The notes beneath the pieces were generated by a model. The model was not told the origin of the DNA, made no database searches, and was given only the letters and a program-made list of their open reading frames with translations. The position numbers and the translations under genes were made by a program. Shown one piece after another: positions 14,280-53,275 of a stretch of 64,000 bases of DNA. Source of the stretch: Candidatus Multivorans sp. (GTDB lineage: Bacteria; Acidobacteriota; Thermoanaerobaculia; Multivoradales; Multivoraceae); NCBI GenBank assembly GCA_965224025.1, contig OZ245033.1, positions 1,952,001-2,016,000 on the forward strand, in the 5' to 3' direction. Positions within the stretch are counted from its first letter, which is position 1. Each line of letters begins with the position of its first letter.

Positions 14280-14282
14280 CAG

Positions 14283-15548
14283 AGTGCTTCAAGGAAGCCG
14301 TTGGTCTTTCTGGTTCGCGCCCAGGCGGCGACGGCCTTCATCGGTTCGACCCAGGAGCGGTTCACGTTGGTGCACCACTGGTGGAGCATTCGCAGGACGA
14401 CGTTGATCTGCTTGCGGTTGAGGATCTCGCGGAGGTGTTCCCGGTAGAGCCAAGCCCGGGCGGTACGGCGGCTGGCGACCTGAGCCACGAGAGCATCTAG
14501 GTCGGCGCGCTGGGCGTTCGCCAGGGCGCCGCGGTCCTTGAGCAGAGTCCAGCGCAGGCCTTTGAGGCTGGGATCGAGGCGCTGCTCGATGCGCCTGGTC
14601 TCGTCCACCGCCTTCGAGGCGAGGGCGACGACGTGGGAACTCGTCGACGGTCAGTCGGCGTTGGGCAGGGTCTCCCGGACTCCCTTGATGAAGGCGGCCG
14701 ACATGTCGATGGAGACCCGGAAGATCCGGGAAGGATCGCCGCCATGCCGGAGCAGGTCGTCGGCGAAGTCCCTGATGGTGGTTGCGCTGCGTCCTTCGGC
14801 AAGGAACACCACCCGCCGACGCCCCGCATCGGCTACCGTCGTCACGTACTTGTGGCCCTTGGCGCGCGATGTCTCGTCGATGGCTACGTTGCCGGCATCG
14901 GAGGGGTCCCTCTGCTCGCAGGCCTCCTCGACGTACCGCTTGCGGACCGCCCGCACCCGGTGCCAGGACTCGCCCGTCAGGCGGGACACCGCCTGGAAAG
15001 GCATTTCCCGGCACAGGCTGAGGATCAAAGCCTCATACAACAGGGTGAACCCCGACAGCCTGCCCGACCACGGCGGCTCGACCAACGCCACGCGGTCGTC
15101 GGGAAGCCGCACCCGCGGCATCCGGGCCTCGAGCAGGCACTCGTGCTGGAAGAAGTTGAGGTGCCGGTACCGCTTCAGCTGGGTGACGTGCATCGGGTGC
15201 GCTCCGCCGGTCTCGCCGTGCGCGAAGCGGCTGCCCCTCCTGAAGTCCATCCGCACCGTCAACCGGCGCTCGCCCTCGTCGAAGTCGACGCCAGCCACGA
15301 GCCAGGGCTCTGACACCCCGAGCGCCCTCGAAAACAGCTCCTGCTCCATCTCCCTCGCCTCCTTGGTCCAAAGGGGCGAAGTCTGACCCGGAAACGCTCC
15401 AAAAACCACCCGGCCATACTGGCCCACCAACCGTTTTCCGCAGCTTCCACAGGCTTCCGCAGACCCGGCGACGGCGGCTCACGGCCAGTAACGACTCGAC
15501 CGCACGCACCTGCACCAAGCCTCTACCCACTCGCAACTCAGAATAGGC
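14283..15548 (-). mobile_element. Degenerate ISL3-family element (frameshift near 14650, 33-bp in-frame deletion, 3' end lost)
   Basis: Left IR GCCTATTCTGAGTTGCGAGTGGGT at 15548; protein similar to the 51597-52823 transposase (YRHLNFFQHEC, IDETSRAKGH, SIDMS). Confidence 0.9.
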
Positions 15549-15853: not shown

Positions 15854-16050
15854 CTAAATGGGGTTGCCTGTGAGGTTACAGAAGTCCACGATGATTTGGT
15901 CGGCGTGACCGCCAGCAACGAAAAGTCCCAGCACGCCGGCCAACTGCTTCTTGAGTTCGGCATTCTTAACCGAGGGCTTGCCGAAAATCTCGTTCTCGGT
16001 GAGATCCAACCACATAGCCACGGGAGAGAGCATCCCTATGCCTATACGAA
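15854..16050 (-). pseudogene. 3' remnant of an unknown gene cut by the IS1595 TIR
   Basis: Reading frame runs into the TIR at 16051. Confidence 0.4.
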
Positions 16051-16080
16051 GGGGATTATGTCGAATAGTGCCCAAGCCGC

Positions 16081-16269
16081 TCACCGGCGCGGGCGCTTGG
16101 TGTAGGTGATCTCAACGGGCTGAAGCAGTCGCCGCGCACCTTCGGCAAGCCGTTCCATCAGCGGCAACTCCATCAAGTCCGCTGGCGGCGCTACTTCGTC
16201 GCGCTGTTCGGCCCGTGACGGCTGGTAGTCCGCCTTGACCAGTTCGATCTTCCGCTTCTTCTTGCTCAC
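16081..16269 (-). CDS. Small basic hypothetical protein ending next to the TIR
   Basis: 62 aa, GGAGG RBS before GTG; MSKKKRKIELVKADYQPS. Confidence 0.6.
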   Translation of the reverse strand: MSKKKRKIELVKADYQPSRAEQRDEVAPPADLMELPLMERLAEGARRLLQPVEITYTKRPRR

Positions 16270-16495
16270 GTTGCCTCCGTTCTCCTAGAACTGGTGCTGC
16301 TACAGTAGCGGCTTGCAATCGTCAGCAGCGGGACCTGAGTCGGGTTACCCGCTGAATACAACAGCCTGTTCTGAGGCTGCGGGTAGCTCCCGAAGCCGGG
16401 CGAATAGGCGGGAGCCTTGTCCGTGCTCGCTGCATGGCGGTTGCAACGGCCCGGCGCCAATCCAGGGGCTGGTGCCTCAACTGGAGGAGGCCCCC

Positions 16496-17812
16496 ATGAA
16501 GAGACTCGCCGCCGCACTGGCGTTGACCGCGCTCGGCTGCGTATCGACCACCACGTCGGCACCAACCGTCAACCCGACCGCCTACAACGCCACGGTCGCG
16601 GAAGCGGCGAAGAAGCACATGGAGCAGTTCGAGAGGCTCCAGAGCGTCTGGTTCCGACTCACAAGCGCCAACTCGGGCCGATGCACGAAGACGCGGTTGA
16701 TGTCGGGTTTCTGGTTCGCCGACCTCGCGACAGCCGCGCAGCCCTATCGCAGTGCATGGACGGCGAAGTACGGCCCGAGCGAGTACGTGACCGTGACCCA
16801 CGTAGCTGCAGGATCCCCGGCCGAAAAGGCGGGCCTGCGAGCGGGCGACCGGATCGTGGCCCGCGACGGGAAGGATCTCGGCACTGGACGACGAGCCGAG
16901 CGACGGATGAAGCGTAGCCCGCAGTCGCTTCACTACAGGCTGACCGTTCTTCGAGACGGAGGCGAAGCCACGCTCTACATGGCGAGCACTCGGCACTGCA
17001 ACTACCCGGCTGGCCTGCTCGAACACGCGACCGTGAACGCATTCGCGGACGGGAAGTCGGTGGCGGTCACGACCGCCGCGATGGACTTCATCAAGACCGA
17101 CGACGAACTCGCGTACCTGCTCGGCCACGAACTCGCGCACAATGCCTACGGGCATCTCGCGGCCGTGAAGCAGAACCAGATCCTCGGCGCTCTGCTGGGA
17201 GCCGTCGTGACGGTCGCGACTGGCGTCTACCAGGACTACAGCGCCCTCGGGGCGCTCTACCACGCGCCGAAGTTCGAGGTCGAGGCCGACTATGCGGGGG
17301 TCTACTTGGCCGCGCGGGCGGGCTACGACGTGGGGTGCGTCTCGGCGTTCTGGGAGAAGATGATCGCTAGGAATCCCGGTGCCGCGTGGGCCGCGAGTCT
17401 CACGCACCCCGACGGGTCTTCGAGGCTGCACGTACTGGACGCGACCGCAGCGGAGATCCATCAGAAGCGCGAGAACGGGCGGCCACTCGTCCCGAACCTC
17501 AAAGGCACGTTGGAAGCTGATCGGGTCGATGTCGGGTCGTTCTTGGCCGGTACTGATTGCGCCGCCGTAAGGGGCGCAACGAGCGACCTGCAAGACCTTC
17601 AAGACGCCAGTTGCAAGAGCGCGGCGGCGAGCATCGCTGTCTCCGTCGAGGGCCTTCAGACGATTCACGAGGCCAACAAGCCTACGGAGGCTCAGTGCGA
17701 TCTGTACCGCGCCCAAGCGAACCTCTGCCCGAAGGGCCTTGGGCACTGCTCGGACGATGACCGGAGCAAGTGCGCCGCGTGGGACGATCTGGTCGCCGAG
17801 CATTGCGATTGA
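16496..17812 (+). CDS. PDZ + M48 metallopeptidase lipoprotein (passenger)
   Basis: GGAGG RBS, lipobox ALGC, PDZ motif GSPAEKAGLRAGD, NAFA, HELAH, EVEAD, THP; Cys-rich tail. Confidence 0.85.
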   Translation: MKRLAAALALTALGCVSTTTSAPTVNPTAYNATVAEAAKKHMEQFERLQSVWFRLTSANSGRCTKTRLMSGFWFADLATAAQPYRSAWTAKYGPSEYVTVTHVAAGSPAEKAGLRAGDRIVARDGKDLGTGRRAERRMKRSPQSLHYRLTVLRDGGEATLYMASTRHCNYPAGLLEHATVNAFADGKSVAVTTAAMDFIKTDDELAYLLGHELAHNAYGHLAAVKQNQILGALLGAVVTVATGVYQDYSALGALYHAPKFEVEADYAGVYLAARAGYDVGCVSAFWEKMIARNPGAAWAASLTHPDGSSRLHVLDATAAEIHQKRENGRPLVPNLKGTLEADRVDVGSFLAGTDCAAVRGATSDLQDLQDASCKSAAASIAVSVEGLQTIHEANKPTEAQCDLYRAQANLCPKGLGHCSDDDRSKCAAWDDLVAEHCD

Positions 17813-17826
17813 GGACTCCATCCTTA

Positions 17827-19140
17827 TCAGGTTACGGTCTGATTCGCCATGAATCCGTCCTTCTTGTTCTTCCTCCGCAGGCCGATCAGCGTGAGCGTGT
17901 TGGATTTGCGCCGGTTGCACGGGCCGCAGAGCAGGCGACGGTTCGAGATGTTGTTGCTGCCCCCACTGGAGCGTGGCGTGTTGTGGTCCAGTTGCAGGTA
18001 CTCGGACGAGTCAAATCCCCGGTCGCAACCGTCGCAGTACACGTAGCCGTCTTCGTCCGTGCTCTGTTCGACCAACAGCGCCTTGCGTTGCGCGTTCGTG
18101 TATCCGTCTGGCGGTTCCTCGAAGAAGTGCTTGCGGCTCTTCATCTTCGGTGCCGCTATCTGCTCGTCGTCCGTACGTACTGGAACGTCCGTACTGTAGT
18201 GAACAGAGCCGACCATCGACTCTCGATCATCTGCGGCCATCCCTTCCGTTTCCAAGCGGTCAAGAACGACCCCATGGGCACCTTTCCATATATCGATGCC
18301 TGTCCACTTCCGATTCAGACGATGCGCCGCCACGCACGTCGTAGCGCAACCGCAGAACGGGTCAAGAACCATGTCTCCCTCGTTGGACGATGCACGGATG
18401 AAGCGCTCGTACAGCGCAAGCGGCTTCTGAGTGTTGAATCCCGTCCGCTCTTTCGCCCAGGGCATGACGCCGTGCATCTCGATTACATCATCCGGTATCT
18501 TGCCTCGCGCGTCTCTTTCGCTGCCGTCCGCTCTCTTCTGGCCATCGACCCACTTGTGTGGAACACGAACGTCATCGACGTTGAACGTCCACGCTGACTT
18601 GTGCTTGGTGTAGAACAGCAACGTGTCGTGCTTCCGTGCGAAGCGGCGCTTGGATGCACCCCCGCCACTGTAGTACCAGACGAGCTCGTTCTGAAACTGG
18701 AATCGTCCGAACACAGCGTCCATGAGCATCTTGAGGTACGCGCCTGCCGTGTGGTCGCAGTGCAGGTAGACCGAACCGGTCGGCTTCAAGACCCGCCTCA
18801 TCTCCAGCAACCGAATCCCCATCCAGACCAGGAACGCCGCCATGTCCTCGCCGTAGCACGCCCCGGCTGACTCGACCAGTTCCTTGATCGCAGGCCAGTC
18901 ATCGGCGATCTTGTCCACCCACTCTTGTTGGACGTCGTTCTCCCACGTCCAGCGGTCCTTGAAGGACGCGCCTGCCGCGAGGCTGTCGGGCGTCGCGTGG
19001 AAGTCCCGCCCTTTGTTGAACGGCGGGTCTGTGGCGATCAGGTCCACCGTCTCACTGTTCATGCCGCGCAAGACCTCTAGGTTGTCCCGGTGGAACAAAG
19101 TCCGGTTCTTCCAGTTGGGCTCGGAAGTTGCAGTGGACAA
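17827..19140 (-). CDS. N6/N4 DNA methyltransferase fused to C-terminal HNH endonuclease
   Basis: DPPF, TQKP, DPFCGCAT (beta order); CDGC...LDHNTPRSSGGSNNISN..LLCGPCNRRK (HNH). Confidence 0.9.
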   Translation of the reverse strand: MSTATSEPNWKNRTLFHRDNLEVLRGMNSETVDLIATDPPFNKGRDFHATPDSLAAGASFKDRWTWENDVQQEWVDKIADDWPAIKELVESAGACYGEDMAAFLVWMGIRLLEMRRVLKPTGSVYLHCDHTAGAYLKMLMDAVFGRFQFQNELVWYYSGGGASKRRFARKHDTLLFYTKHKSAWTFNVDDVRVPHKWVDGQKRADGSERDARGKIPDDVIEMHGVMPWAKERTGFNTQKPLALYERFIRASSNEGDMVLDPFCGCATTCVAAHRLNRKWTGIDIWKGAHGVVLDRLETEGMAADDRESMVGSVHYSTDVPVRTDDEQIAAPKMKSRKHFFEEPPDGYTNAQRKALLVEQSTDEDGYVYCDGCDRGFDSSEYLQLDHNTPRSSGGSNNISNRRLLCGPCNRRKSNTLTLIGLRRKNKKDGFMANQTVT

Positions 19141-19145
19141 TTCCG

Positions 19146-19201
19146 GCGCTGGCGCGCTGGCGCGCTGGCGCGCTGGCGCGCTGGCGCGCTGGCGCGCTGG
19201 C
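19146..19201. repeat. Perfect tandem repeat (GCGCTGGC)x7
   Basis: Seven contiguous 8-bp units between the transposase stop and the MTase body. Confidence 0.97.
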
Positions 19202-19210
19202 CGTCCGCCG

Positions 19211-20200
19211 TCATGCCGAACGTGCGCCGGACGGCAGACCGTTGTCGGCGATCAACTCGCGGTAGCGGAGTCGCTTGCCGACCAGCCACGCTGATACGAC
19301 CGTCATTTGGTCGATGGTGTCGAACTCCCGAATGTTCTGCCGCCCCGCGAATTCATCGACATAGCGCTGTAGGTGCTTCGGCGAGAGCTTGTGGTAGACG
19401 CCCTTGTGGGCGCGCTTGAGCATCGACCAAAGCGACTCGATGCTGTTCGTGTGGATCTTGCCGTCCACGTACTCGCCGACCGAGTGCCGGACGGTGCCGC
19501 GCTCGTACTCGGTCAGACCGCTGTACGCCCCGGTATCGTCGCTGTACACCGTCGCGCCGGGTTCGACGTGCTCGCGCACGAAACCTTGAAGCGTCCCGCC
19601 GTCAGTCGAGCGGACGACCCGCGCCGCGACCTTCTTGGTCTCCCGATCCTTGATGCCGACCACGGCGGTCTTGCCCACGGTGCCGCGGCCTTCAAGGGTC
19701 TTCCGCTTCTTCGCGTGCATGTTCTTCCGCAGACCGCCGATGTACGTCTCATCGACCTCTACCGGCCCCTCGAAGACGACTCGCGGCCCTTCGGCCTCAA
19801 ACGCCTTGCGGAGACGGTGAGCGAGGTGCCACGCGGTCTTCTGCGTCACGTCCAAGTCACGGTGCAGCTTCATGCTCGATACGCCCTTGAGACCCGTCAG
19901 GAGCAGGTACAGCGCCATCGCCCACACTTGGTAGCCGAGGTTGCTCGCCTCCATGACGGTGCCAGTCTTGAGGCTGAAGCGCTTGCGGCACGTCCGGCAG
20001 CGGTACGGCATCGTCTTGTGCTTCGCGCCACTTTGGACGTTCTCGGAGCCGCAGTGCGGGCACGATGGACCTTCGGGCCAGCGGATGCACGTGAACCACG
20101 CTTCCGCCGCCGCATCGTCGGGGAACAGGCGGATCGCGTCGATCAGGCTCATGCCCTTCCGGTAGTGCTTACCGGGTGCGTCTTGCAGTGTCGTCGTCAT
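19211..20200 (-). CDS. IS1595-family transposase
   Basis: Zn ribbon CPHC...CRTC, VEVDETY, YSDD, HTNSIES, LQRYVDEF. Confidence 0.95.
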   Translation of the reverse strand: MTTTLQDAPGKHYRKGMSLIDAIRLFPDDAAAEAWFTCIRWPEGPSCPHCGSENVQSGAKHKTMPYRCRTCRKRFSLKTGTVMEASNLGYQVWAMALYLLLTGLKGVSSMKLHRDLDVTQKTAWHLAHRLRKAFEAEGPRVVFEGPVEVDETYIGGLRKNMHAKKRKTLEGRGTVGKTAVVGIKDRETKKVAARVVRSTDGGTLQGFVREHVEPGATVYSDDTGAYSGLTEYERGTVRHSVGEYVDGKIHTNSIESLWSMLKRAHKGVYHKLSPKHLQRYVDEFAGRQNIREFDTIDQMTVVSAWLVGKRLRYRELIADNGLPSGARSA

Positions 20201-20207
20201 GCCCAGA

Positions 20208-20236
20208 AGATTACAGGATAGTGCCCGTCCTGTCAA
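20208..20236 (-). promoter_or_regulatory. Sigma70 promoter of the IS1595-A transposase (probably leaderless)
   Basis: TTGACA-17 bp-TAATCT ending 7 nt before the ATG at 20200. Confidence 0.7.
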
Positions 20237-20244
20237 GTGGTAAG

Positions 20245-20568
20245 ATGGCCTCCATGTCGGACAGTGAACGCCTCGGCGACCTCATGCTGAAGCGGCGGCA
20301 AGCCGAGAATTCAGCAGCCTGCTACCGCACCAAGGCGAAGGGGATCGCTCGGTCTCTGACACAAGCCGCCGCGTCAATGCTGAGCGCCATCGGAGACGCG
20401 GATCAGAACGTCCGAATGACTGGCGGCTATCCGGTCGAGATGCGAGATGCGCGCTACGTGGACTACGCCGAAGCACTCCGCGCCATAGAGCAGTACACGA
20501 AGAACCTCCATGCCGCCGCCGACATCGAACGGAAGATCGAAGAACTACTGCCGCCGCAGTGCCAATGA
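20245..20568 (+). CDS. Hypothetical coiled-coil passenger protein
   Basis: ORF divergent from the transposase, inside the TIRs; ATGA overlap with the next ORF. Confidence 0.5.
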   Translation: MASMSDSERLGDLMLKRRQAENSAACYRTKAKGIARSLTQAAASMLSAIGDADQNVRMTGGYPVEMRDARYVDYAEALRAIEQYTKNLHAAADIERKIEELLPPQCQ

Positions 20569-21002
20569 GCGAAGAACCCCAACGAGATAACGCCACAGAA
20601 GCTCCGCGATGGGTCTTTCGACGTGCGGCTTGCAACTCGGATTCTCTCTTGGAGAACGAGGTTCGGCAGCTTGTCGAGCGCGATACCGCGGACATGAACA
20701 AGCTCTTGGAGTGCCGGGGCGAGAAGTATCGGTACGAGGTCGTCAAAGAAGAACTCACGTTGCGAGTCGCGCAAAAACGAGACGGAGAGTCGGTTGCTGC
20801 CGTATCGTTCCAGTCGACCGGCCTACAACTGCGGTTCTTGATGGCGGAGCAGTCAGATGTGATCGTCACGCCTCGATGGAGCGCGGTAGAGATGCGTTGT
20901 CACCTCCACAAGCCCGGATCGGCAGGCACACGAATCGCTCTCGATGTCTTCGTGCGCGAGAACCTCGAACGGTTCTTCTTCCACGCCGCCGGTATCCCGT
21001 GA
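20565..21002 (+). CDS. Hypothetical passenger protein
   Basis: ORF coupled to the previous one; stops 1 bp before the TIR. Confidence 0.5.
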   Translation: MSEEPQRDNATEAPRWVFRRAACNSDSLLENEVRQLVERDTADMNKLLECRGEKYRYEVVKEELTLRVAQKRDGESVAAVSFQSTGLQLRFLMAEQSDVIVTPRWSAVEMRCHLHKPGSAGTRIALDVFVRENLERFFFHAAGIP

Positions 21003-21030
21003 CGCTTGGGCACTATTCGACATAATCCCC

Positions 21031-21251
21031 ATCCGAAAGCACCTGCAAGCGATCGCTGCCTGGGCGCGAACCCGGCAGACCAACGGCTTCCTCGAAGCCC
21101 TCAACGGACTCTTCCAGTCCGCCAAACGCAAGGCCAGAGGCTACAAGCGATTCGACACCATACGCATCGCCTTCTTCCTCATCGCCGGCAAACTCGACTT
21201 CCACACGCTCAACCCGCACACCGCTTGACCCACTCGTAATTCAAAAGAGCC
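21031..21251 (+). mobile_element. ISL3 3' fragment with right IR
   Basis: 221 bp that read identical to 52626-52846, ending ACCCACTCGTAATTCAAAAGAGCC. Confidence 0.95.
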
Positions 21252-22439
21252 ATTGTTATTCTGGTCGGCGACGCGCAGCTCGAAGAACGCTGACGGGCTG
21301 ACGACATAGCCCCAACTCGCCGTCACCATGTCGGCGGGGAGCTGGATGGGGAAGGGGCCAAAGTTGTCGCCGGAGGTGGGGGGGATCGCGAGTACCCTGG
21401 TCGGGCTATCGATTCCCAGCAGCCTCATCTGGTTGCGGTCGTTGGGCTGGAAGTTGAGCTTGACGAGCGCCGGCTCGTTGGTGCGGCCGGCGGCTAAAGG
21501 GGTGCCGGTCGCGGTGATCTTGTCGACGCGATTCTGGTCCAGCTCGGCGTAAGCGGCGAAGAACCATGCCTTGTCGCTGACGATGGGTCCGCCGACGTTG
21601 GCCTCGAAGCTCGAGATGATCGAGTCCGAGCGGGGGATGTCGATATTCTCGTCGGCGGCCCGCCACTCCTGGCTCTGGGGGATGTAGAGAAACTGGCCGT
21701 GGAGAATGTTGGTGCCGCTCTTGACCACCGCGTTGGTGACCCCACCGACCACCCGCCCGTACTCGGTCGAGAAACCGGCGCTTTCCAACTGCACCTCCTG
21801 AAGGGCGCTGGTGGGCAGGAACGTGCGCGCGCTGCCGCCCAAGCGGGAGAAGCTCGAGTCGACGCCGTCGATCATGCCTGCCACTTCGGTGTCCTGGCCG
21901 CCGTTGACCGCCATCTTCTGGTCGCTCTGCCTCCGCGACCTGGCGGAGTGCGTGACGCCAGGCAGTGCGTTGAAGGAAGATTGATATTGGCGCCCACCGA
22001 AGCTCAAGTTCTCCGCCACCGCCGTCTCGAGGCTGGCGGAGGTGCCGACGACGTAGCGGTCGACGAGAGCCGCCCCGGCGGTGACGGTGAGCGTCTCCTC
22101 GGTGACGGCGCCCAGAGTCAGCTCCAGGGTGCGACGGGCGCCGGTCTCTAGACGGGCAGATGTTGCCTCGCTCTCCCCGAGCCCCTCGAGGGCGGCCTTC
22201 ACCGTGTACTCTCCCGCCTCGAGCAGGGCGAACCGGAAGACGCCGTCGTCGCCTGTAATCACGGCCTTCTCGCCGCGGGGACCGGAGAGGGTCACGGTCA
22301 CCCCCGGCAGCGGTTGGCTCTGAGCGTCGAGCACCAGGCCGTCGAGGGTCCCGGTCTGCGGACCGTCGGCCAGAAGTGGCAAGGCGCAGAGGGCGATGAC
22401 GATGCTCCAGATAGAAGACCTAAGGGCGGTGGCGTCCAT
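21252..22439 (-). pseudogene. TonB-dependent receptor (Oar-like), truncated by ISL3
   Basis: Signal peptide, carboxypeptidase-regulatory domain, plug EYGRVVGGVTNAVVKSGTN, GGPIVSDKAWFF; frame runs into the IS. Confidence 0.88.
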
Positions 22440-42916: not shown

Positions 42917-44424
42917 TGATGGCATTTCGATTCAGAGACTGTGCGCTCGCCGTGGGACTGATCGCCGCGTTCGGCTGTCAATCTTCTGAGCCGCCACCGG
43001 AGACCTCGATTCCCCCACCGGCGCCAGCACCGCCGCCGAACATCGTCGTCATCGTCGGTGACGACCTGGGCTACGGCGACATCGGGGTGTACGGCTCGCA
43101 GATCCCCACGCCTCACATCGACCAGTTGGCACGCGACGGCGTGCGCCTGACCGACGGCCATGTGTCCGCAGCCGTCTGCAGTCCGATGCGAGCGGGTTTC
43201 CACACCGGGCGGTATCAGAATCGCTTCGGCTGGGAGTACAACCCCACCGACCACAACCTCGGGCTTCCGTTGGATCAGAAAACGGTCGCCAACCACTTTC
43301 AGGACGCCGGCTATGTCACCGGCCTGATCGGTAAGTGGCACCTGGGCGTGGCCGAGCCGCACCATCCACTCCACCGCGGCTTCGACGAGTTCTACGGAAT
43401 GCTGGGAGGCGCCTCCAGCTACATCGACTCCCGACTTCCAGGCACCCACGAGTGGCCCGCCGAGGGAGCCCCCACCACCCGCACCAGCGACTCGCGTGTC
43501 ATCCGCGACGGCTTCGAGGTGATCGAGGTCGAGGAGTATCTGACTGACGTCTTTGCCGAGAAGGCGGTCGACTTCATCGATCGCCACGCCGACGAGCGCT
43601 TCCTCCTGATGCTGACTCCCAACACTCCGCACACCCCGCTCCAGGCGACCGACGAGTACATGGAGCGGGTGCGGCACATCGAAGGCGATGGAGCGCGCGT
43701 CTACGCTGCGATGGTCGTCTCGCTCGACGACTACGTCGGCGACGTCGTCGCGGCCCTACGCAAGTACGACCTCGAGCGCGACACGCTGGTCGTCTTTCTC
43801 TCCGACAATGGGTGCATCAACTACATGACCGAGCCGATCTGCACCAACGCGCCGCTGGCGGGGAACAAGCGCTACCACCTGGAAGGCGGTCATCGTGTTC
43901 CCTTCATCCTCAAGTGGCCGGCGGGCCTTCCTCAGGGCGAGGTCTACCGCGAGCTTGCCAGCGCACTCGATCTCTACGCCACTTTCACTGCCGCGAGCGG
44001 TCTCGAAGCGGATAGCCCGGACAGCGTCAACCTGCTTCCGCATCTACGCGGCGAGACCAGCGAGCCGCCGCACGAGTTCCTCTATTGGCGGGCGGCGCCG
44101 AACATCGCCATCCGCTGGGGCAAGTGGAAGATGTGGAGAGTGAACAACACCGACATGGAGGTCCCTGACGGGCGACCGGGCCAGACGACCCCGCTGAGGG
44201 AATACCCACCCGACGACTCACCCATGGGTCAGACCACCGTTCTGTACGATCTGGAGGCTGACATCGGCGAGACCAACAACATCGCAGATCAGCACCCCGA
44301 GATCGTAGAGCGCCTGGAGAGCGAGCTCGCCGCCTGGGAGGCCGAGCTTGCCGAGCCACTCTGGGTCAACCATCGCGGGACTCTTCACTCGCTTCACGGT
44401 CAGACGGTTCAGCTCTTCTTTTAG
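42916..44424 (+). CDS. Arylsulfatase-family lipoprotein
   Basis: Lipobox AFGC, DDLG, CSPMR, GKWHLG, SDNG. Confidence 0.92.
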   Translation: MMAFRFRDCALAVGLIAAFGCQSSEPPPETSIPPPAPAPPPNIVVIVGDDLGYGDIGVYGSQIPTPHIDQLARDGVRLTDGHVSAAVCSPMRAGFHTGRYQNRFGWEYNPTDHNLGLPLDQKTVANHFQDAGYVTGLIGKWHLGVAEPHHPLHRGFDEFYGMLGGASSYIDSRLPGTHEWPAEGAPTTRTSDSRVIRDGFEVIEVEEYLTDVFAEKAVDFIDRHADERFLLMLTPNTPHTPLQATDEYMERVRHIEGDGARVYAAMVVSLDDYVGDVVAALRKYDLERDTLVVFLSDNGCINYMTEPICTNAPLAGNKRYHLEGGHRVPFILKWPAGLPQGEVYRELASALDLYATFTAASGLEADSPDSVNLLPHLRGETSEPPHEFLYWRAAPNIAIRWGKWKMWRVNNTDMEVPDGRPGQTTPLREYPPDDSPMGQTTVLYDLEADIGETNNIADQHPEIVERLESELAAWEAELAEPLWVNHRGTLHSLHGQTVQLFF

Positions 44425-44500
44425 GGGATTATATCTCTAGGTTGACAAACTGGCTCTCCGTCCGGTAGGGTATACCTCACGGTTGACGGAGGGAGAAGCG

Positions 44501-45487
44501 ATGAACGACACAGAACTCAAGGCACCCGGCAAGGCTCACCGGAAGGGCATCACGCTGTTCGACTTGCAGCGGATGTTCCCCGATGAGGAAGCGGCGCGGC
44601 AGTGGTTCGAGGCGATCGTCTGGCCGGACGGCGAGCGCTACTGCCCGCACTGCGGCACCGACAACAACCACGAGTGCAGCCACGCGAAGATGCCGTACCG
44701 CTGCCGCGACTGCAAGCGGTACTTCTCGGTGAAGACCGGCACCGTGATGGCGCGGTCGAAGCTGCCTCTGCTCAAGTGGCTGTACGCGATCTACCTCGAC
44801 ACAACGAGCCTCAAGGGCGTGTCGTCGATGAAGATCCACCGTGACCTGGGCGTCACTCAGAAGACCGCGTGGTTCATGCTCCAGCGCATCCGCGAGTTCA
44901 GCGACTCGGGGCCGACCGTGCGCTTCGAGGGACCGGCAGAAGCCGATGAGGCGTACTTCGGCGGTCTGCGGAAGAATATGCACGCGAAGAAGCGCAAGAC
45001 CCTCGAAGGCCGTGGCTCTGTCGGCAAGACAGCGGTGGTGGGCGTCAAGGACCGCGAGACCGGCATGGTGGCGGCGCGTGTCGTCCGTTCGACCGACGGC
45101 GAGACCCTGCAAGCGTTCGTCCGTGAGCACGTCGAACCCGGCGCAACGGTCTACACGGACGATACGGGGGCGTACAGCGGTTTGACCGAGTACGAGCGCG
45201 GCACCGTCAAGCACTCGGTCGGCGAGTACGTTGCGGGCAAGGTTCACACGAACTCGATCGAGAGCTTCTGGTCGATGCTCAAGCGCGCCCACAAGGGCGT
45301 GTACCACAAGCTCTCACCGAAGCATCTACAGCGCTACGTCAACCAGTTCGCGGGCCGTCACAACTTCCGCGATCTCGACACGCTGGCGCAAATGGCGTCC
45401 GTCACCGAGGGGCTGGCGGGCAAGCGGCTCCAGTACCGTGACCTGATCGCCGACAACGGCCTGCCGTCCGGCGCTCGCTCGGCATGA
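44501..45487 (+). CDS. IS1595-family transposase
   Basis: CPHC...CRDC, EADEAY, YTDD, HTNSIES. Confidence 0.95.
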   Translation: MNDTELKAPGKAHRKGITLFDLQRMFPDEEAARQWFEAIVWPDGERYCPHCGTDNNHECSHAKMPYRCRDCKRYFSVKTGTVMARSKLPLLKWLYAIYLDTTSLKGVSSMKIHRDLGVTQKTAWFMLQRIREFSDSGPTVRFEGPAEADEAYFGGLRKNMHAKKRKTLEGRGSVGKTAVVGVKDRETGMVAARVVRSTDGETLQAFVREHVEPGATVYTDDTGAYSGLTEYERGTVKHSVGEYVAGKVHTNSIESFWSMLKRAHKGVYHKLSPKHLQRYVNQFAGRHNFRDLDTLAQMASVTEGLAGKRLQYRDLIADNGLPSGARSA

Positions 45488-47070
45488 ACCCACCGGACGC
45501 GGGCACGCTGTACTACGGTGACTGCCTCGACTGGATGCAGCGATGGGACGATCAGTCCGTAGACCTGATTTACCTCGATCCGCCATTCAACTCGAAGGCC
45601 GACTACAACATCCTCTACTCGGCTCGCGGCGGCGCTGACGCGCAGTACCGGGCGTTCAGCGACACATGGGCGTGGGACGAAGCCGCGGCGGACCGCTACG
45701 CGGCCTACGAGGGTGCGCCCGCACGACGCGCCCACGACGCGATAGTGGGCCTACGGCACGCCATCGGCCCGTCCGGGATGCTCGCCTACCTGACCTACAT
45801 GGCGGAGCGCTTGGAGCACATGCACCGGCTCCTCAAGCCAACAGGTTCGATCTACTTGCACTGTGACCCGACCGCGAGCCACTATCTCAAAATCGTCATG
45901 GACGCGATCTTCGGTGTGCCGAATTTCCGATCCGAAATCGGATGGAAGCGAACCAGCAGCCACAACGACGGCGCGCAGGGAAGACGACAATTTGGACGTG
46001 TACTGGATCGCGTCCTCTACTACTCGAGGGGCGACGGTTGGGCTTGGAATCCGCTGTACACGCCATACGATGACCAATACGTCGACGGTTTCTACCGCTA
46101 TGTCGAAGAAGACACTGGACGGCGCTATCGACTCAGCGATATGACTGGGCGCGGCGGTGCAGCGAAGGGCAACCCGCAGTACGAGGTACTGGGCGTAACG
46201 CGCTATTGGGCCTACTCCCGCGAGCGGATGCAGCGGATGATCGACGAAGGACGGGTTGTACAAACAGCGCCGGGCCGCGTCCCGGCCTACAAGCGCTATT
46301 TGGACGAGGCCAAGGGCCGGCCGTTGCAGGACCTATGGACGGACATAGGGCCGATCGGCGCCCAGGCGAAGGAACGGATGGGTTACCCGACCCAGAAGCC
46401 CCGCGCGTTGCTGGAGCGGATCATCGAAGCGAGCAGTAACCCTGACGACCTGATTCTCGATCCGTTCTGCGGTTGCGGTACGACCATTGAAGCGGCGCAG
46501 CGTCTCGGCCGACAGTGGGCCGGGATCGACATTTCGTCATTCGCTATCGACCTGATCCGTGAGAAGCGGCTGAAGAACCGGACGATCCCGACGAAGGGGA
46601 TCCCGGTCGATCTCGCATCGGCGCGCAAGCTGGCAACCGAGCAGCCGTTCAGCTTTGAATCGTGGGCGGTGACGCGGCTCCCCGGTTTCGCGCCGAACAT
46701 GAAGCAGGTTGCGGACGGCGGCGTGGACGGTCGCGCCGTGATCGCCGCTCAGCCGGACGACTACGATTCCCGTCTCGCGCTGGCGCAGATCAAGGGCGGT
46801 GGATTCCATCTCGGAGCGTTGCGGGACTTCCGCCATGTCACAGACCGCGACGAAGCGGCTCTCGGCTGCTTCGTCACACTGGAACCAGTCGGCTCGCGTG
46901 CAGCGCGGGCGGAAGCGGCAGAGGCTGGCACGATCAGCGTGTCCGGTCAGCCCTACAGGAGAATGCAGCTATGGCCGATCAGCGAGTACTTCGACGGGAG
47001 ACTGCCACGCTTGCCGACGATGAACGATCCGTACAGCGGCAAGCCGATGGCGCAGCAGGAACTGTTCTGA
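45484..47070 (+). CDS. N6/N4 DNA methyltransferase fused to Mrr-like PD-(D/E)xK domain
   Basis: DPPF, YPTQKP, DPFCGCGT; C-terminal FESW...DGGVDG...AQIK; ATGA overlap with the transposase stop. Confidence 0.88.
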   Translation: MNPPDAGTLYYGDCLDWMQRWDDQSVDLIYLDPPFNSKADYNILYSARGGADAQYRAFSDTWAWDEAAADRYAAYEGAPARRAHDAIVGLRHAIGPSGMLAYLTYMAERLEHMHRLLKPTGSIYLHCDPTASHYLKIVMDAIFGVPNFRSEIGWKRTSSHNDGAQGRRQFGRVLDRVLYYSRGDGWAWNPLYTPYDDQYVDGFYRYVEEDTGRRYRLSDMTGRGGAAKGNPQYEVLGVTRYWAYSRERMQRMIDEGRVVQTAPGRVPAYKRYLDEAKGRPLQDLWTDIGPIGAQAKERMGYPTQKPRALLERIIEASSNPDDLILDPFCGCGTTIEAAQRLGRQWAGIDISSFAIDLIREKRLKNRTIPTKGIPVDLASARKLATEQPFSFESWAVTRLPGFAPNMKQVADGGVDGRAVIAAQPDDYDSRLALAQIKGGGFHLGALRDFRHVTDRDEAALGCFVTLEPVGSRAARAEAAEAGTISVSGQPYRRMQLWPISEYFDGRLPRLPTMNDPYSGKPMAQQELF

Positions 47071-47113
47071 GGGAGCATTCCATCTACGGCGGGCCTAGGT
47101 GAGCGGCGCTGTT

Positions 47114-47248
47114 ATGAAGATCAAGAAGCCTCGCCGCAAGGGATTGAAGGCCAACTACAACGGCGCGACTCCGAAGCAGGTGGCGCACTGGCTGCTGATG
47201 AAGGACCGGGCGAAGCCGGTCAAGGCCACCAAGAAGGCCGAGGCGTGA
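47114..47248 (+). CDS. Small basic hypothetical protein (44 aa) next to the TIR
   Basis: MKIKKPRRKGLKANYNGATPKQVAHWLLMKDRAKPVKATKKAEA; below the ORF-track cutoff. Confidence 0.5.
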   Translation: MKIKKPRRKGLKANYNGATPKQVAHWLLMKDRAKPVKATKKAEA

Positions 47249-47355
47249 TCGGTTTCTGTCAACCTACGGATATAATCCCCTTCTTTTAAGGCTCCGCGTC
47301 CTACAATTCCAGAGAGCGTTGTCGCGGCCTCCGAGACACGACTCAGCCGCTCGCC

Positions 47356-51348: not shown

Positions 51349-52846
51349 GCCTCTTTCGAGTTGCGAGTGGGTAGGGCGCGGGCGAGTGCAGATGCTGAGG
51401 GGGTCTTGGGATAGCGGCCTCCGCCGCCGTAGCCGCCGCCGTCGGGCTGTGGAATCTGCGGAAGACCGGTAGCGGCGAGGGCGCAAGCTGTCCGGTGGGG
51501 AGGGCGTTCGCGGCGATTTCGGGTGGCGGCTGTAGTCGCGGGCGATCGGAATGAGCAAGACTCGTCTCTCCTGTTCCGACTGAAGGAGGACGAGAGATGC
51601 AGAGGGAATTGTTCGCGAGAGCGCTGGGCGTGTCGGCGCCGTGGTTCGTTGACGGCGTGGACTTCTGTGAGAGGGAGCGTCGGTTGACGATACGGATCGA
51701 CTTCAGGAAGGGCAGCCGATTCGCCCACGAGGGGGACGGCGGTTCTCATCCGGTGCACGACACGCAGATCAAGCGCTATCGGCACCTCAACTTCTTCCAG
51801 CACGAGTGCCTGCTCGAGGCGCGAGTGCCCCGTGTGCGACTCCCCGACCAGCGGGTGGCGTTGGTGACTCCGCCCTGGTCGGGCAGATTGTCCGGCTTCA
51901 CGCTGCTGTTCGAAGCCTTGATTCTGGCCATGTGCCGAGACATGACCTTCGCTGCGGTGGCCCGGTTGACCGGGGTGTCGTGGCATCGGGTGCACGCGAT
52001 CTGCAAGCGCTACGTCGAGCTGGCGGTCGACCGGGACGACCTCTCCGAACTGCGCCACGTGGCCATTGACGAGACTTCCCGCGCCAAGGGGCACGACTAC
52101 GTGACCGCGGTCGCCGACAGCGAGCGCCGGCGCGTGGTGTTCCTCGCCGAGGGACGCAAGTCCGGCACGATCGAGGAGTTCGCCGACGATCTGCAAAGGC
52201 GCGGCGGCGATCCCGCCGCGATCAGCCGGGCGTCCATCGACATGTCGGCCGCCTTCCTCAAGGGCGTCGCCGAGAATCTCCCCAACGCCGAGGTGACCCT
52301 CGACAAGTTCCACGTCATGGCCCTGGCCTCGAAGGCGGTGGACGAGACCCGGCGCCTCGAACAGCGCCTCGATCCGTCGCTGAAGGGCCTGCGCTGGACG
52401 CTGCTCAAGAACCGCGACTCCCTGACGCCGGCCCAACGGGCCGACCTCGACCGCTTCGTCAAGAGGGTCGCCAGCCGACGCACCGCACGCGCCTGGCTCT
52501 ATCGGGAGCAACTCCGCGAAATTCTCAACCGCAAGCAGATCAACGTCGTGCTGCGAATGCTCCATCAGTGGTGCACCAACGTGAACCGCTCCAAGGTCGA
52601 ACCCATGAAGGCCGTCGCCCGCACCATCCGAAAGCACCTGCAAGCGATCGCTGCCTGGGCGCGAACCCGGCAGACCAACGGCTTCCTCGAAGCCCTCAAC
52701 GGACTCTTCCAGTCCGCCAAACGCAAGGCCAGAGGCTACAAGCGATTCGACACCATACGCATCGCCTTCTTCCTCATCGCCGGCAAACTCGACTTCCACA
52801 CGCTCAACCCGCACACCGCTTGACCCACTCGTAATTCAAAAGAGCC
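51349..52846 (+). mobile_element. ISL3-family element, complete (1498 bp)
   Basis: IRs GCCTCTTTCGAGTTGCGAGTGGGT / GGCTCTTTTGAATTACGAGTGGGT (20/24); no TSD. Confidence 0.93.
51597..52823 (+). CDS. ISL3 transposase
   Basis: IDETS, IDMS, DKFHV, NGFLEALN, KRKARGY. Confidence 0.95.
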   Translation: MQRELFARALGVSAPWFVDGVDFCERERRLTIRIDFRKGSRFAHEGDGGSHPVHDTQIKRYRHLNFFQHECLLEARVPRVRLPDQRVALVTPPWSGRLSGFTLLFEALILAMCRDMTFAAVARLTGVSWHRVHAICKRYVELAVDRDDLSELRHVAIDETSRAKGHDYVTAVADSERRRVVFLAEGRKSGTIEEFADDLQRRGGDPAAISRASIDMSAAFLKGVAENLPNAEVTLDKFHVMALASKAVDETRRLEQRLDPSLKGLRWTLLKNRDSLTPAQRADLDRFVKRVASRRTARAWLYREQLREILNRKQINVVLRMLHQWCTNVNRSKVEPMKAVARTIRKHLQAIAAWARTRQTNGFLEALNGLFQSAKRKARGYKRFDTIRIAFFLIAGKLDFHTLNPHTA

Positions 52847-53275
52847 ACTTTTCTTCCAGACGAAAGACGTGACAAAATTCGAACGCCCGAACAACTCGTC
52901 CATTACGACCTTGAGGTAGTGCGCCTCGTTGTCGTCAATCGACACCCAGATCGAGCCGTCCTCGGCCAGCAACTCCCTCAGCAACTCCAGCCGCGGCCAC
53001 ATCATCGCCAACCACTGGCTGTGTTCAAGGTTGTCGTCGTAGTGCTCGAATGCCGAGCGCGTGTTGTACGGCGGATCGATGTAGACGCATTTCACCCGGC
53101 CGGCGTAGAACGGCAGGAGTGCCTTGAGAGCGTCCAGATTGTCGCCCTGGATCAGCATGTTCGTCGCGTCGCAGTCACCAGCAGAAAGGTCGGCCGCCTC
53201 TTCGAACAGCCGGTAGGGGACGCGCTGCGCCGCACTGACGTCCTCTTCCCGGCTCAGCCAGTTCAAGATCGGCAT
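52847..53275 (-). pseudogene. Type III R-M Mod methyltransferase 5' fragment cut by ISL3
   Basis: NMLIQGDNLDAL, YIDPPYNT, SIDDNE; frame runs into the IS. Confidence 0.85.

Follow-up and report, generated by a model that had tools for sequence, protein, structure and literature searches.

Can a run of short tandem repeats decide whether a transposon-borne methyltransferase (MTase) is translated? The question arises within a 64,000-nt stretch of the genome of Candidatus Multivorans sp. (assembly GCA_965224025.1, contig OZ245033.1, positions 1,952,001 to 2,016,000), hereafter the window. On the minus strand of the window, an insertion sequence (IS) of the IS1595 family, here called element A, carries a transposase gene followed by a gene for an MTase fused to an HNH domain, which is a predicted nuclease, and between the two lie seven perfect copies of GCCAGCGC. 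With moderate confidence, and from the arrangement of the sequence, we propose that this hypermutable repeat would gate translation of the methylase-nuclease.

A non-triplet repeat between transposase and methylase

The anatomy of the junction and the reading frames across it are directly observed (Table 1). The IS1595 transposase open reading frame (ORF) ends ...GCA TGA, and the ATG at 19214-19212 overlaps this stop at 19213-19211 to form ATGA. Thirteen bases lead from ATG 19214 to the start of the GCCAGCGC array (19201-19146), which is followed by CGGAA and then by TTG 19140. Tandem Repeats Finder describes the array as a period of 8 in 7.0 copies with 100% matches and scores it at 112, the highest among its 28 rows for the window (runner-up 77). 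The frame of ATG 19214 reads MTADGQRASAPARQRASAPARQRRNCPLQ... for 45 codons and then meets a TAG at 19079-19077. At 74 nt, the distance from 19214 to 19140 breaks the frame, which 6 or 9 units would restore. The methylase frame itself is open through the repeat, and its first ATG, GTG or TTG is TTG 19140, upstream of which no Shine-Dalgarno (SD)-like motif stands at a usable distance, only a directly abutting GGAA. An earlier note on this DNA, made from the letters alone, had described the seven copies, the ATG overlapping the transposase stop, the out-of-frame 74 nt with a stop at 19077, and a TTG 19140 that has no clear ribosome-binding site, and all of these readings hold. The note had further predicted that other repeat counts would read in frame with no stop, and a natural relative with 12 units of the GCCAGCGC repeat (L041) does so, reading VTTDGDGQRASAPAR(QRASAPAR)n..APAPELSTATSEPNWKNRTLW.

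Table 1. Features of element A and its repeat junction, with element B, in window coordinates
Feature	Position	Strand	Basis
Element A, whole transporter IS, 4,980 bp, IS1595 family	16051..21030	-	three-copy homology ends at the inverted repeats
Left terminal inverted repeat (transposase side), GGGGATTATGTCGAATAGTGCCCAAGC on the minus strand	21004..21030	-	perfect 27-bp match to the other end
Right terminal inverted repeat, 27 bp	16051..16077	+	perfect match to the other end
IS1595-family transposase, 329 residues from ATG 20200 (mechanical ORF starts at TTG 20236)	19211..20200	-	Pfam, NCBIfam
ATGA: transposase stop TGA 19213-19211 and candidate coupled start ATG 19214-19212	19211..19214	-	read directly
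(GCCAGCGC)x7, perfect octanucleotide repeat	19146..19201	-	Tandem Repeats Finder score 112
Dead-end leader ORF from ATG 19214, 45 codons and TAG, crossing TTG 19140 in another frame	19077..19214	-	frame reading
TTG, sole canonical in-frame start upstream of the conserved N-terminus (rival start)	19138..19140	-	frame reading
Internal in-frame ATG (M of RGMNSETVDL)	19060..19062	-	used by gene callers in close relatives
Methyltransferase-HNH ORF, 437 residues from TTG; MTase domain ~18280-19047, HNH ~17899-18036	17827..19140	-	Pfam, PADLOC, PDB relatives
M48 peptidase with PDZ domain, convergent with the MTase, inside the inverted repeats	16313..17812	+	PF01435 1.5e-15, PDZ_6 6.7e-09
Two putative small ORFs (20254-20568, 20609-21025), divergent from the transposase, inside the inverted repeats	20254..21025	+	no family match
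Element B, second IS1595 transporter IS; MTase 45484-47070 starts at an ATGA overlap, no repeat	44424..47280	+	sequence reading

In the switch that we propose, ribosomes finishing the transposase would stop at the TGA and re-initiate at the overlapping ATG 19214, and the number of 8-nt units would set what they read next. At n = 3, 6, 9 and so on they would read into the methylase-nuclease (ON or high) and make a protein with a QRASAPAR-type N-terminal extension, while at n = 7, the present count, or n = 4, that of a sister copy, they would enter the 45-codon dead end across TTG 19140 (OFF or low). Slipped-strand mispairing would alter n, so that the population would be mixed for the enzyme and the element would still transpose silently; such a silent arrival, avoiding autotoxicity in a new host, is plausible. 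We infer the re-initiation at the ATG, an effect on protein output, population switching, and a methylation or restriction phenotype.

The RNA of the array pairs with itself, and a long imperfect hairpin is predicted (minimum free energy -99.1 kcal/mol, z = -3.2, with 0 of 200 shuffles as stable). The GCGC, CCGG or CGCG within the units may favour slippage and impede nearby initiation. A promoter and terminator scan of 17600-20400 finds neither around the junction at the scan thresholds. A TTGACA-17-TAATCT motif before the transposase was rejected as a promoter because it fails the -10 criterion, and a programmed -1 frameshift leading from the frame of the ATG to that of the MTase was dropped, no X XXY YYZ heptamer being seen in the leader.

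Element A is present in three copies in this genome, which carry 7, 7 and 4 units in otherwise identical leaders. Across the 5.14-Mb genome (67.6% GC), 82 perfect simple sequence repeats (SSRs) reach the scan thresholds, of which 58 are 3-, 6- or 9-mers; the two 56-nt arrays of element A are the longest of the 82, and only four are octanucleotide repeats, three of them the element A junctions. The repeat therefore lies well outside what chance would give.

Related junctions show the same architecture. A census of every distinct sequence 3′ of an IS1595-type transposase C-terminus yields 31 junctions, 20 of which continue into an MTase N-terminus, and 16 share the order NTGA, short spacer, repeat, CGGAATT and conserved N-terminal codons (Table 2). 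At this one junction at least four clearly different 7- or 8-nt units recur in 1 to 20 copies, all of them 7 or 8 nt long and never a multiple of three. Paralog counts also differ within genomes, being 7/7/4 here, 8/8/2 in G023 and 11/12/5 in G035. Because copy numbers and units differ among sister copies and relatives, the tract is hypermutable. The comparison of homologous elements, which the earlier note had named as a check, thus finds both repeat number and unit varying at the same junction among paralogs and genomes. As for the note's larger claim of a mobile ON/OFF switch, a tract placed as for a translational switch, a real multi-copy transposon, varying counts and in-frame forms are all present, and it is the switching itself that we infer.

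Table 2. Repeat units between transposase and MTase in this genome and in relatives (the last four arrays are left out of the frame assignment)
Junction	Unit	Copies
This genome, A1, A2, A3	GCCAGCGC	7, 7, 4
G035 L012	GCCAGCGC	11
G035 L041	GCCAGCGC	12
G035 L042	GCGCCAGC (GCCAGCGC repeat, rotated)	5
G036 L046, two copies of the locus	CGCCAGCG (GCCAGCGC repeat, rotated)	2
G027 L021	two imperfect GCCAGCGC-like units	2
G023 L043, two copies of the locus	CGACCGGG	8
G023 L044	CGACCGGG	2
G037 L127, two copies of the locus	CGACCGGG	1
Metagenome contig L118	CGACCGGG	7
G027 L050, two copies of the locus	GACCGGGC	2
G023 L045, another element	CGGGGGC	10
G034 L023	GACGCGG	9
G031 L018	GCGACCG	20
G003	GGGACGC	8 + 8 (at least 16) around a run of N (assembly gap)
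G001	GACCGGC	14 (contig begins inside the array)
Metagenome contig L120	CGACCGGG	6 (contig begins inside the array)
G011	TTCACGGC, ~85 nt upstream of an in-frame GTG	9

The leader type is confined to one genus. A 431-nt junction query matches 29 of 42 genus genomes at E ≤ 1e-3, many of the matches being limited to the transposase part; at E ≤ 1e-15 it matches 11 of 300 genomes of the order, all of the same genus, and none of 259 genomes from 88 other genera. A search with the leader pattern returns 8 loci in genome contigs, all within three genomes found before, 52 matches in metagenome contigs, of which only 2 are relatives, and one chance match in viral contigs.

Where translation of the methylase starts

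In the repeat-free junctions (L015, L057, L010 and element B) the MTase is in frame from a stop-overlapping NTG in 4 of 4 cases, as in GTG AGC GAG CCG AAC TGG, which reads MSEPNW. For element B the earlier note had reported an MTase starting at the ATG that overlaps the transposase stop, and this is what is found, at 45484 and with no repeat there. All repeat-bearing junctions but one (15 of 16) retain NTGA, the exception being L042, which has no overlapping NTG. In the homolog set, the best 120 of 4,669 at E ≤ 1e-10, the conserved NW motif stands at index 4 in 76 (MxxP-NW). Because MxxP-NW is the N-terminus of the family, the active protein must start upstream of PNW, and because NW stands at index 4, the segment PNWKNRTLFHRDNLEVLRG is part of the protein, and starting at the internal ATG 19062 would cost the product this conserved segment. 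Gene callers placed the start of four proteins of close relatives (P0003, P0004, P0017 and P0023) at the internal ATG, and there is therefore no in-frame upstream ATG or GTG in these relatives either.

Natural in-frame forms exist. They comprise, among the junctions, L023 with an intact body and L041 and L046 with broken bodies, and, among database proteins, P0058, which reads MTTRKSDSLKQG(QPASPPAR)x3..., P0082, which reads ...(RSEAK)x3..., and P0005, which begins MTT... with its leader in frame. Over the 16 junctions, the MTase frame relative to the NTG is 0 in 3, +1 in 7 and +2 in 6, the last including all three local copies. In the seven +1 junctions (L050, L044, L043, L012, L021, L042 and L018) the MTase lies in the frame of the transposase, and where the transposase stop of those seven junctions is TGA, one TGA-C codon alone separates the transposase and MTase frames.

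Several findings weigh against gating from the NTG. Intact bodies are in frame with the NTG in only 1 of 13 junctions and broken bodies in 2 of 3 (one-sided Fisher p = 0.07; binomial p = 0.04 for one or fewer of 13; the rows are related, so both values are only suggestive), so that without another start the majority of the intact genes would be silent. The excess of out-of-frame frames among intact bodies is, suggestively, what a cost of expression from the NTG would produce. Four of the five leaders with one or two units (G037, G023 L044, G027 L050 and G027 L021) keep intact bodies despite being out of frame with the NTG. The three local copies share a single out-of-frame state, since 7 and 4 units differ by 24 nt and the frame is kept. 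In 18 of 18 leaders an unchanging AATT follows the repeat, giving ATT (12) or TTG (6) in the MTase frame; ATT accounts for 10.3% of Ile codons and TTG for 6.4% of Leu codons in the 567 ORFs of at least 800 codons of this genome, and an invariant AATT that gives rare codons therefore points to a function at the nucleotide level, for example as a start codon. Initiation at TTG 19140, which is in frame, could plausibly yield a full-length protein whose conserved NW motif would stand 8 residues from the start, against a typical 4. The absence of an SD motif before this TTG is weak evidence, because SD use in this genome is weak and the test is noisy: SD-like motifs precede only 229 of 1,002 long ORFs whose first start is unambiguous, as compared with 139 of 1,002 when a control position is scored, in an ORF set that includes spurious ones. 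The stretch also occurs in five sequencing runs from three studies, in all as assembled contigs; four were examined, and their unitigs end some 30 nt inside the array on both sides (18836-19175 and 19178-19337, for instance), so that array length is unreadable there and the runs speak neither for nor against switching. One examined run contains a relative with a different junction.

Much of this evidence would fit an untranslated spacer, with the enzyme made from TTG 19140 (ATT in most relatives) at any n and repeat length either neutral or modestly tuning output through the hairpin or the spacing. We regard this alternative, the main rival, as somewhat unlikely. It draws on the invariant AATT with its two rare codons, on the 12 of 13 intact relatives that are out of frame with the NTG, four of them with one or two units that hardly slip, and on the apparently small use of SD motifs in the genome; in addition, the in-frame codon is TTG instead of ATT where the frame has been moved by a 1-nt indel (element A, G035 and G027 L021), and the stable predicted hairpin lies just 5′ of the TTG. 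However, a spacer leaves unexplained why non-triplet repeats (at least four units), homopolymers and a tetranucleotide recur at the exact junction, among them the longest SSRs of the genome, and the NTGA that is kept so widely would have no role under it, although the repeat-free relatives all use their NTG. Ribosomes coming from ATG 19214 would also cross TTG 19140 and should disturb initiation there, and in the few cases known ATT initiates very poorly. Moreover, homologs from other phyla have C15 (L153, from an Acidimicrobiales metagenome-assembled genome (MAG)) or C9 (L155, from a Dehalococcoidia MAG) at the same position with no in-frame start upstream. Similarly, in L184, from an Arenicellales MAG, (GCAA)6 follows the IS1595 transposase and no in-frame start precedes the conserved N-terminus. 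The tracts of these three loci stand between an upstream ATG or transposase and that N-terminus. These loci belong to a wider set of homolog loci, 79 of 80 of which could be scored, and most others have an ATG 12 nt before the N codon.

It is improbable, in our judgement, that the repeat is a neutral mutational hot spot of palindromic GC-rich units in decaying cargo, the out-of-frame gene being dead and its switching unselected. The units do contain GCGC, CCGG or CGCG and self-fold, all three local copies are out of frame, and 3 of the 16 bodies are broken: two G035 copies (L012 and L041) share a 1-nt insertion (AAA for AA) right after the DPPF codons, ~100 nt past the MTase start, because of which the 12-unit in-frame copy is still broken, and the G036 copies have a single in-frame stop in the MTase body. 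Decay is nevertheless hard to reconcile with the other 13 repeat-leader junctions, which keep intact bodies of 385-460 residues after DPPF, or with the three local ORFs, which are intact over 437-450 residues and conserve the catalytic motifs. The TSEP codons just downstream of the repeat show synonymous third-position changes and hence coding constraint, and such arrays are otherwise absent from the 5.1-Mb genome (67.6% GC). An assembly artefact, with a true count of 6 or 9 and the gene simply in frame, is very unlikely: repeat counts do misassemble, and short-read MAGs of the genus break or gap at the arrays (G001 and G003), but two separate loci read exactly 7 and a third reads 4 in a near-complete assembly of three contigs. 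Misassembly would hardly shift two loci by a whole 8-nt unit, and an in-frame upstream ATG or GTG is likewise missing from the relatives whose proteins the gene callers began at the internal ATG.

The proposed gating from ATG 19214 can also be cast more broadly, in a form that we consider quite improbable. The repeat would then be a three-position selector that ties a self-contained restriction-modification (R-M) enzyme to the translation of its own transposase, and it would have evolved repeatedly, with different units, in IS1595 elements across many phyla. In register 0, ribosomes re-initiating at the NTGA overlap would make the enzyme. In register +1, that of 7 of the 16 relatives, the MTase would sit behind a single TGA-C, and rare read-through would yield a transposase-methylase-nuclease fusion. 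In register +2, that of this window, the gene would be silent. A potentially self-toxic module could in this way transpose and transfer silently and then turn on in a minority of cells. Among the best 120 of 4,669 homologs there is no transposase-MTase fusion (no row with PF12762).

Comparison with known switches and transporter elements

In phase-variable Type III mod methyltransferases (phasevarions such as modA, modH and modM), SSR number sets the reading frame (PMC7383803, PMC11868660). The gene of element A resembles them in being a beta-class amino-MTase, with EcoP15I Mod among its PDB sequence relatives (2.8e-12), in having a perfect non-triplet SSR in the 5′ part of its reading frame (if the coupled ATG 19214 is the start), and in a copy number that differs between strains or copies, here between paralogs and genomes. 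In contrast to the mod genes, it has no res partner and carries instead an HNH nuclease fused to the MTase; it is cargo of a three-copy transposon, its start would overlap the transposase stop, and the units are 7-8 nt. Its host is an uncultured environmental symbiont lineage rather than a host-adapted pathogen.

SSR-bearing Type I hsdM genes are described as well (PMC7383803). With them the gene of element A would share the ON/OFF control of an R-M methylase by slippage, as proposed here. The poly-G gated single-chain Type IIG enzymes, such as Cj0031c of Campylobacter jejuni, in addition combine restriction and modification in one polypeptide. Unlike either group, the gene of element A has a C-terminal HNH domain and another MTase class, is borne on a transposon, and is coupled to a transposase gene.

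The carrier also belongs to a known type. Transporter IS (tIS) are IS-like elements with passenger genes, so far only of the IS1595 and IS66 families (bioRxiv 10.1101/2021.05.26.445724). Element A matches this type in its IS1595 DDE transposase with a Zn-ribbon and its terminal inverted repeats with passenger genes inside them, and element B also in the 8-bp duplication; a difference is that the passenger of element A stands behind a hypermutable repeat and that element A reaches 5 kb with up to four passenger ORFs. Among the papers listed by literature searches, none deals with a methylase that sits on an insertion sequence behind a gating repeat, nor with phase variation in sponge symbionts. 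The SSR phase-variable MTase is thus a known type, and its setting in an IS1595 transporter IS is probably new. The present analysis adds intact paralogs whose counts differ within one genome, a frame census in which out-of-frame genes are in excess among the intact ones, and the conserved AATT as a rival start.

To our knowledge, phase-variable methyltransferases are known almost only from host-adapted pathogens, as chromosomal Type I or Type III genes. Here the same slippage logic would apply to a methylase-nuclease fusion that is cargo of a multi-copy transposon in an uncultured acidobacterial lineage (Thermoanaerobaculia), and slippery tracts at the same position in homologs from many other MAG phyla would lend mobility to hypermutable R-M modules. 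A working switch would open a silent route of spread for defence genes that are costly, generate epigenetic and phage-resistance heterogeneity within dense communities of symbionts, and provide a natural experiment in how contingency loci evolve repeatedly. The idea can be tested directly in one sample, thanks to paralogs that have 7, 7 and 4 units and an apparently swapped central segment in the MTase.

The methylase-nuclease, its transposon and the surrounding DNA

The MTase ORF matches N6_N4_Mtase (PF01555) at 2.5e-51 over positions 1-214 of 221 and PADLOC MTase_II at 1.5e-54. With DPPF at residues 39-42 and DPFCGCATT later, it has the motifs of a beta-class amino-MTase, and its PDB sequence relatives also include M.MboIIA, M.RsrI and CcrM. 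The C-terminal HNH domain (PF01844, 7.3e-10, positions 1-46 of 47) contains CDGC...LDHNTPRSSGGSNNISNRRLLCGPCN, a paired CxxC. The neighbours of the MTase gene are the IS1595 transposase and the M48/PDZ peptidase, and since no res gene lies beside it, this is not a Type III system. Between A1 and A2/A3, the first ~120 residues of the MTase are identical and the HNH end nearly so, whereas a central block of ~100 residues between the NExVW and TQKP motifs is strongly diverged (window 18280-18700, minus strand); along the gene, DNA identity of the window copy to L002 and L003 runs from 98.6% through an unalignable stretch to 87.8%. This pattern suggests that the central block is an exchanged target-recognition segment, and the transposon copies may therefore methylate different sites.

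The cargo sits on a real, multi-copy IS1595-type transporter IS. The three genomic copies of element A are homologous over ~5 kb, ending exactly at the perfect 27-bp inverted repeats, and the left tip GGGGATTAT is the same as in element B. This 5-kb extent goes beyond the transposase and MTase alone. The transposase matches PF12762 at 3e-40, the Zn-ribbon PF12760 at 7.5e-08 and the NCBIfam model transpos_IS1595 (NF033547) at 3.2e-53 with 180.8 bits (cut-off 75). The M48/PDZ peptidase and the two small ORFs are an odd cargo for an IS1595 element, and PADLOC gives no match for any of them.

Element B is flanked on both sides by the 8-bp target duplication TTCTTTTA. The 8-bp flanks of element A differ, being TTTCGGAT and TTCGTATA in element orientation (window 16043-16050 and 21031-21038). 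The left flank in the window equals the right flank of L059, and the right flank in the window equals the left flank of L060. The third pair, formed by the left flank of L059 and the right flank of L060, agrees at all but one position. These permuted flanks would fit 8-bp duplications reshuffled by homologous recombination between the copies, and hence chromosomal rearrangements.

Elsewhere in the genome, a GCCGAA hexanucleotide is present in 7 copies on the chromosome (G000:C1:2355937-2355978) and in 4 on the 77-kb contig C2 (G000:C2:24242-24265), with identical flanks; contig C2 may be a strain variant or haplotig of that chromosomal region. Within the window, diverged ISL3-type transposase genes (PF01610, PF13542) lie at 14282-15430, adjoining the transposon, and at 51594-52856. 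A 233-nt direct repeat (99% identical) at 21029-21261 abuts the left end of the transposon, and the region around element A is a patchwork of insertion sequences.

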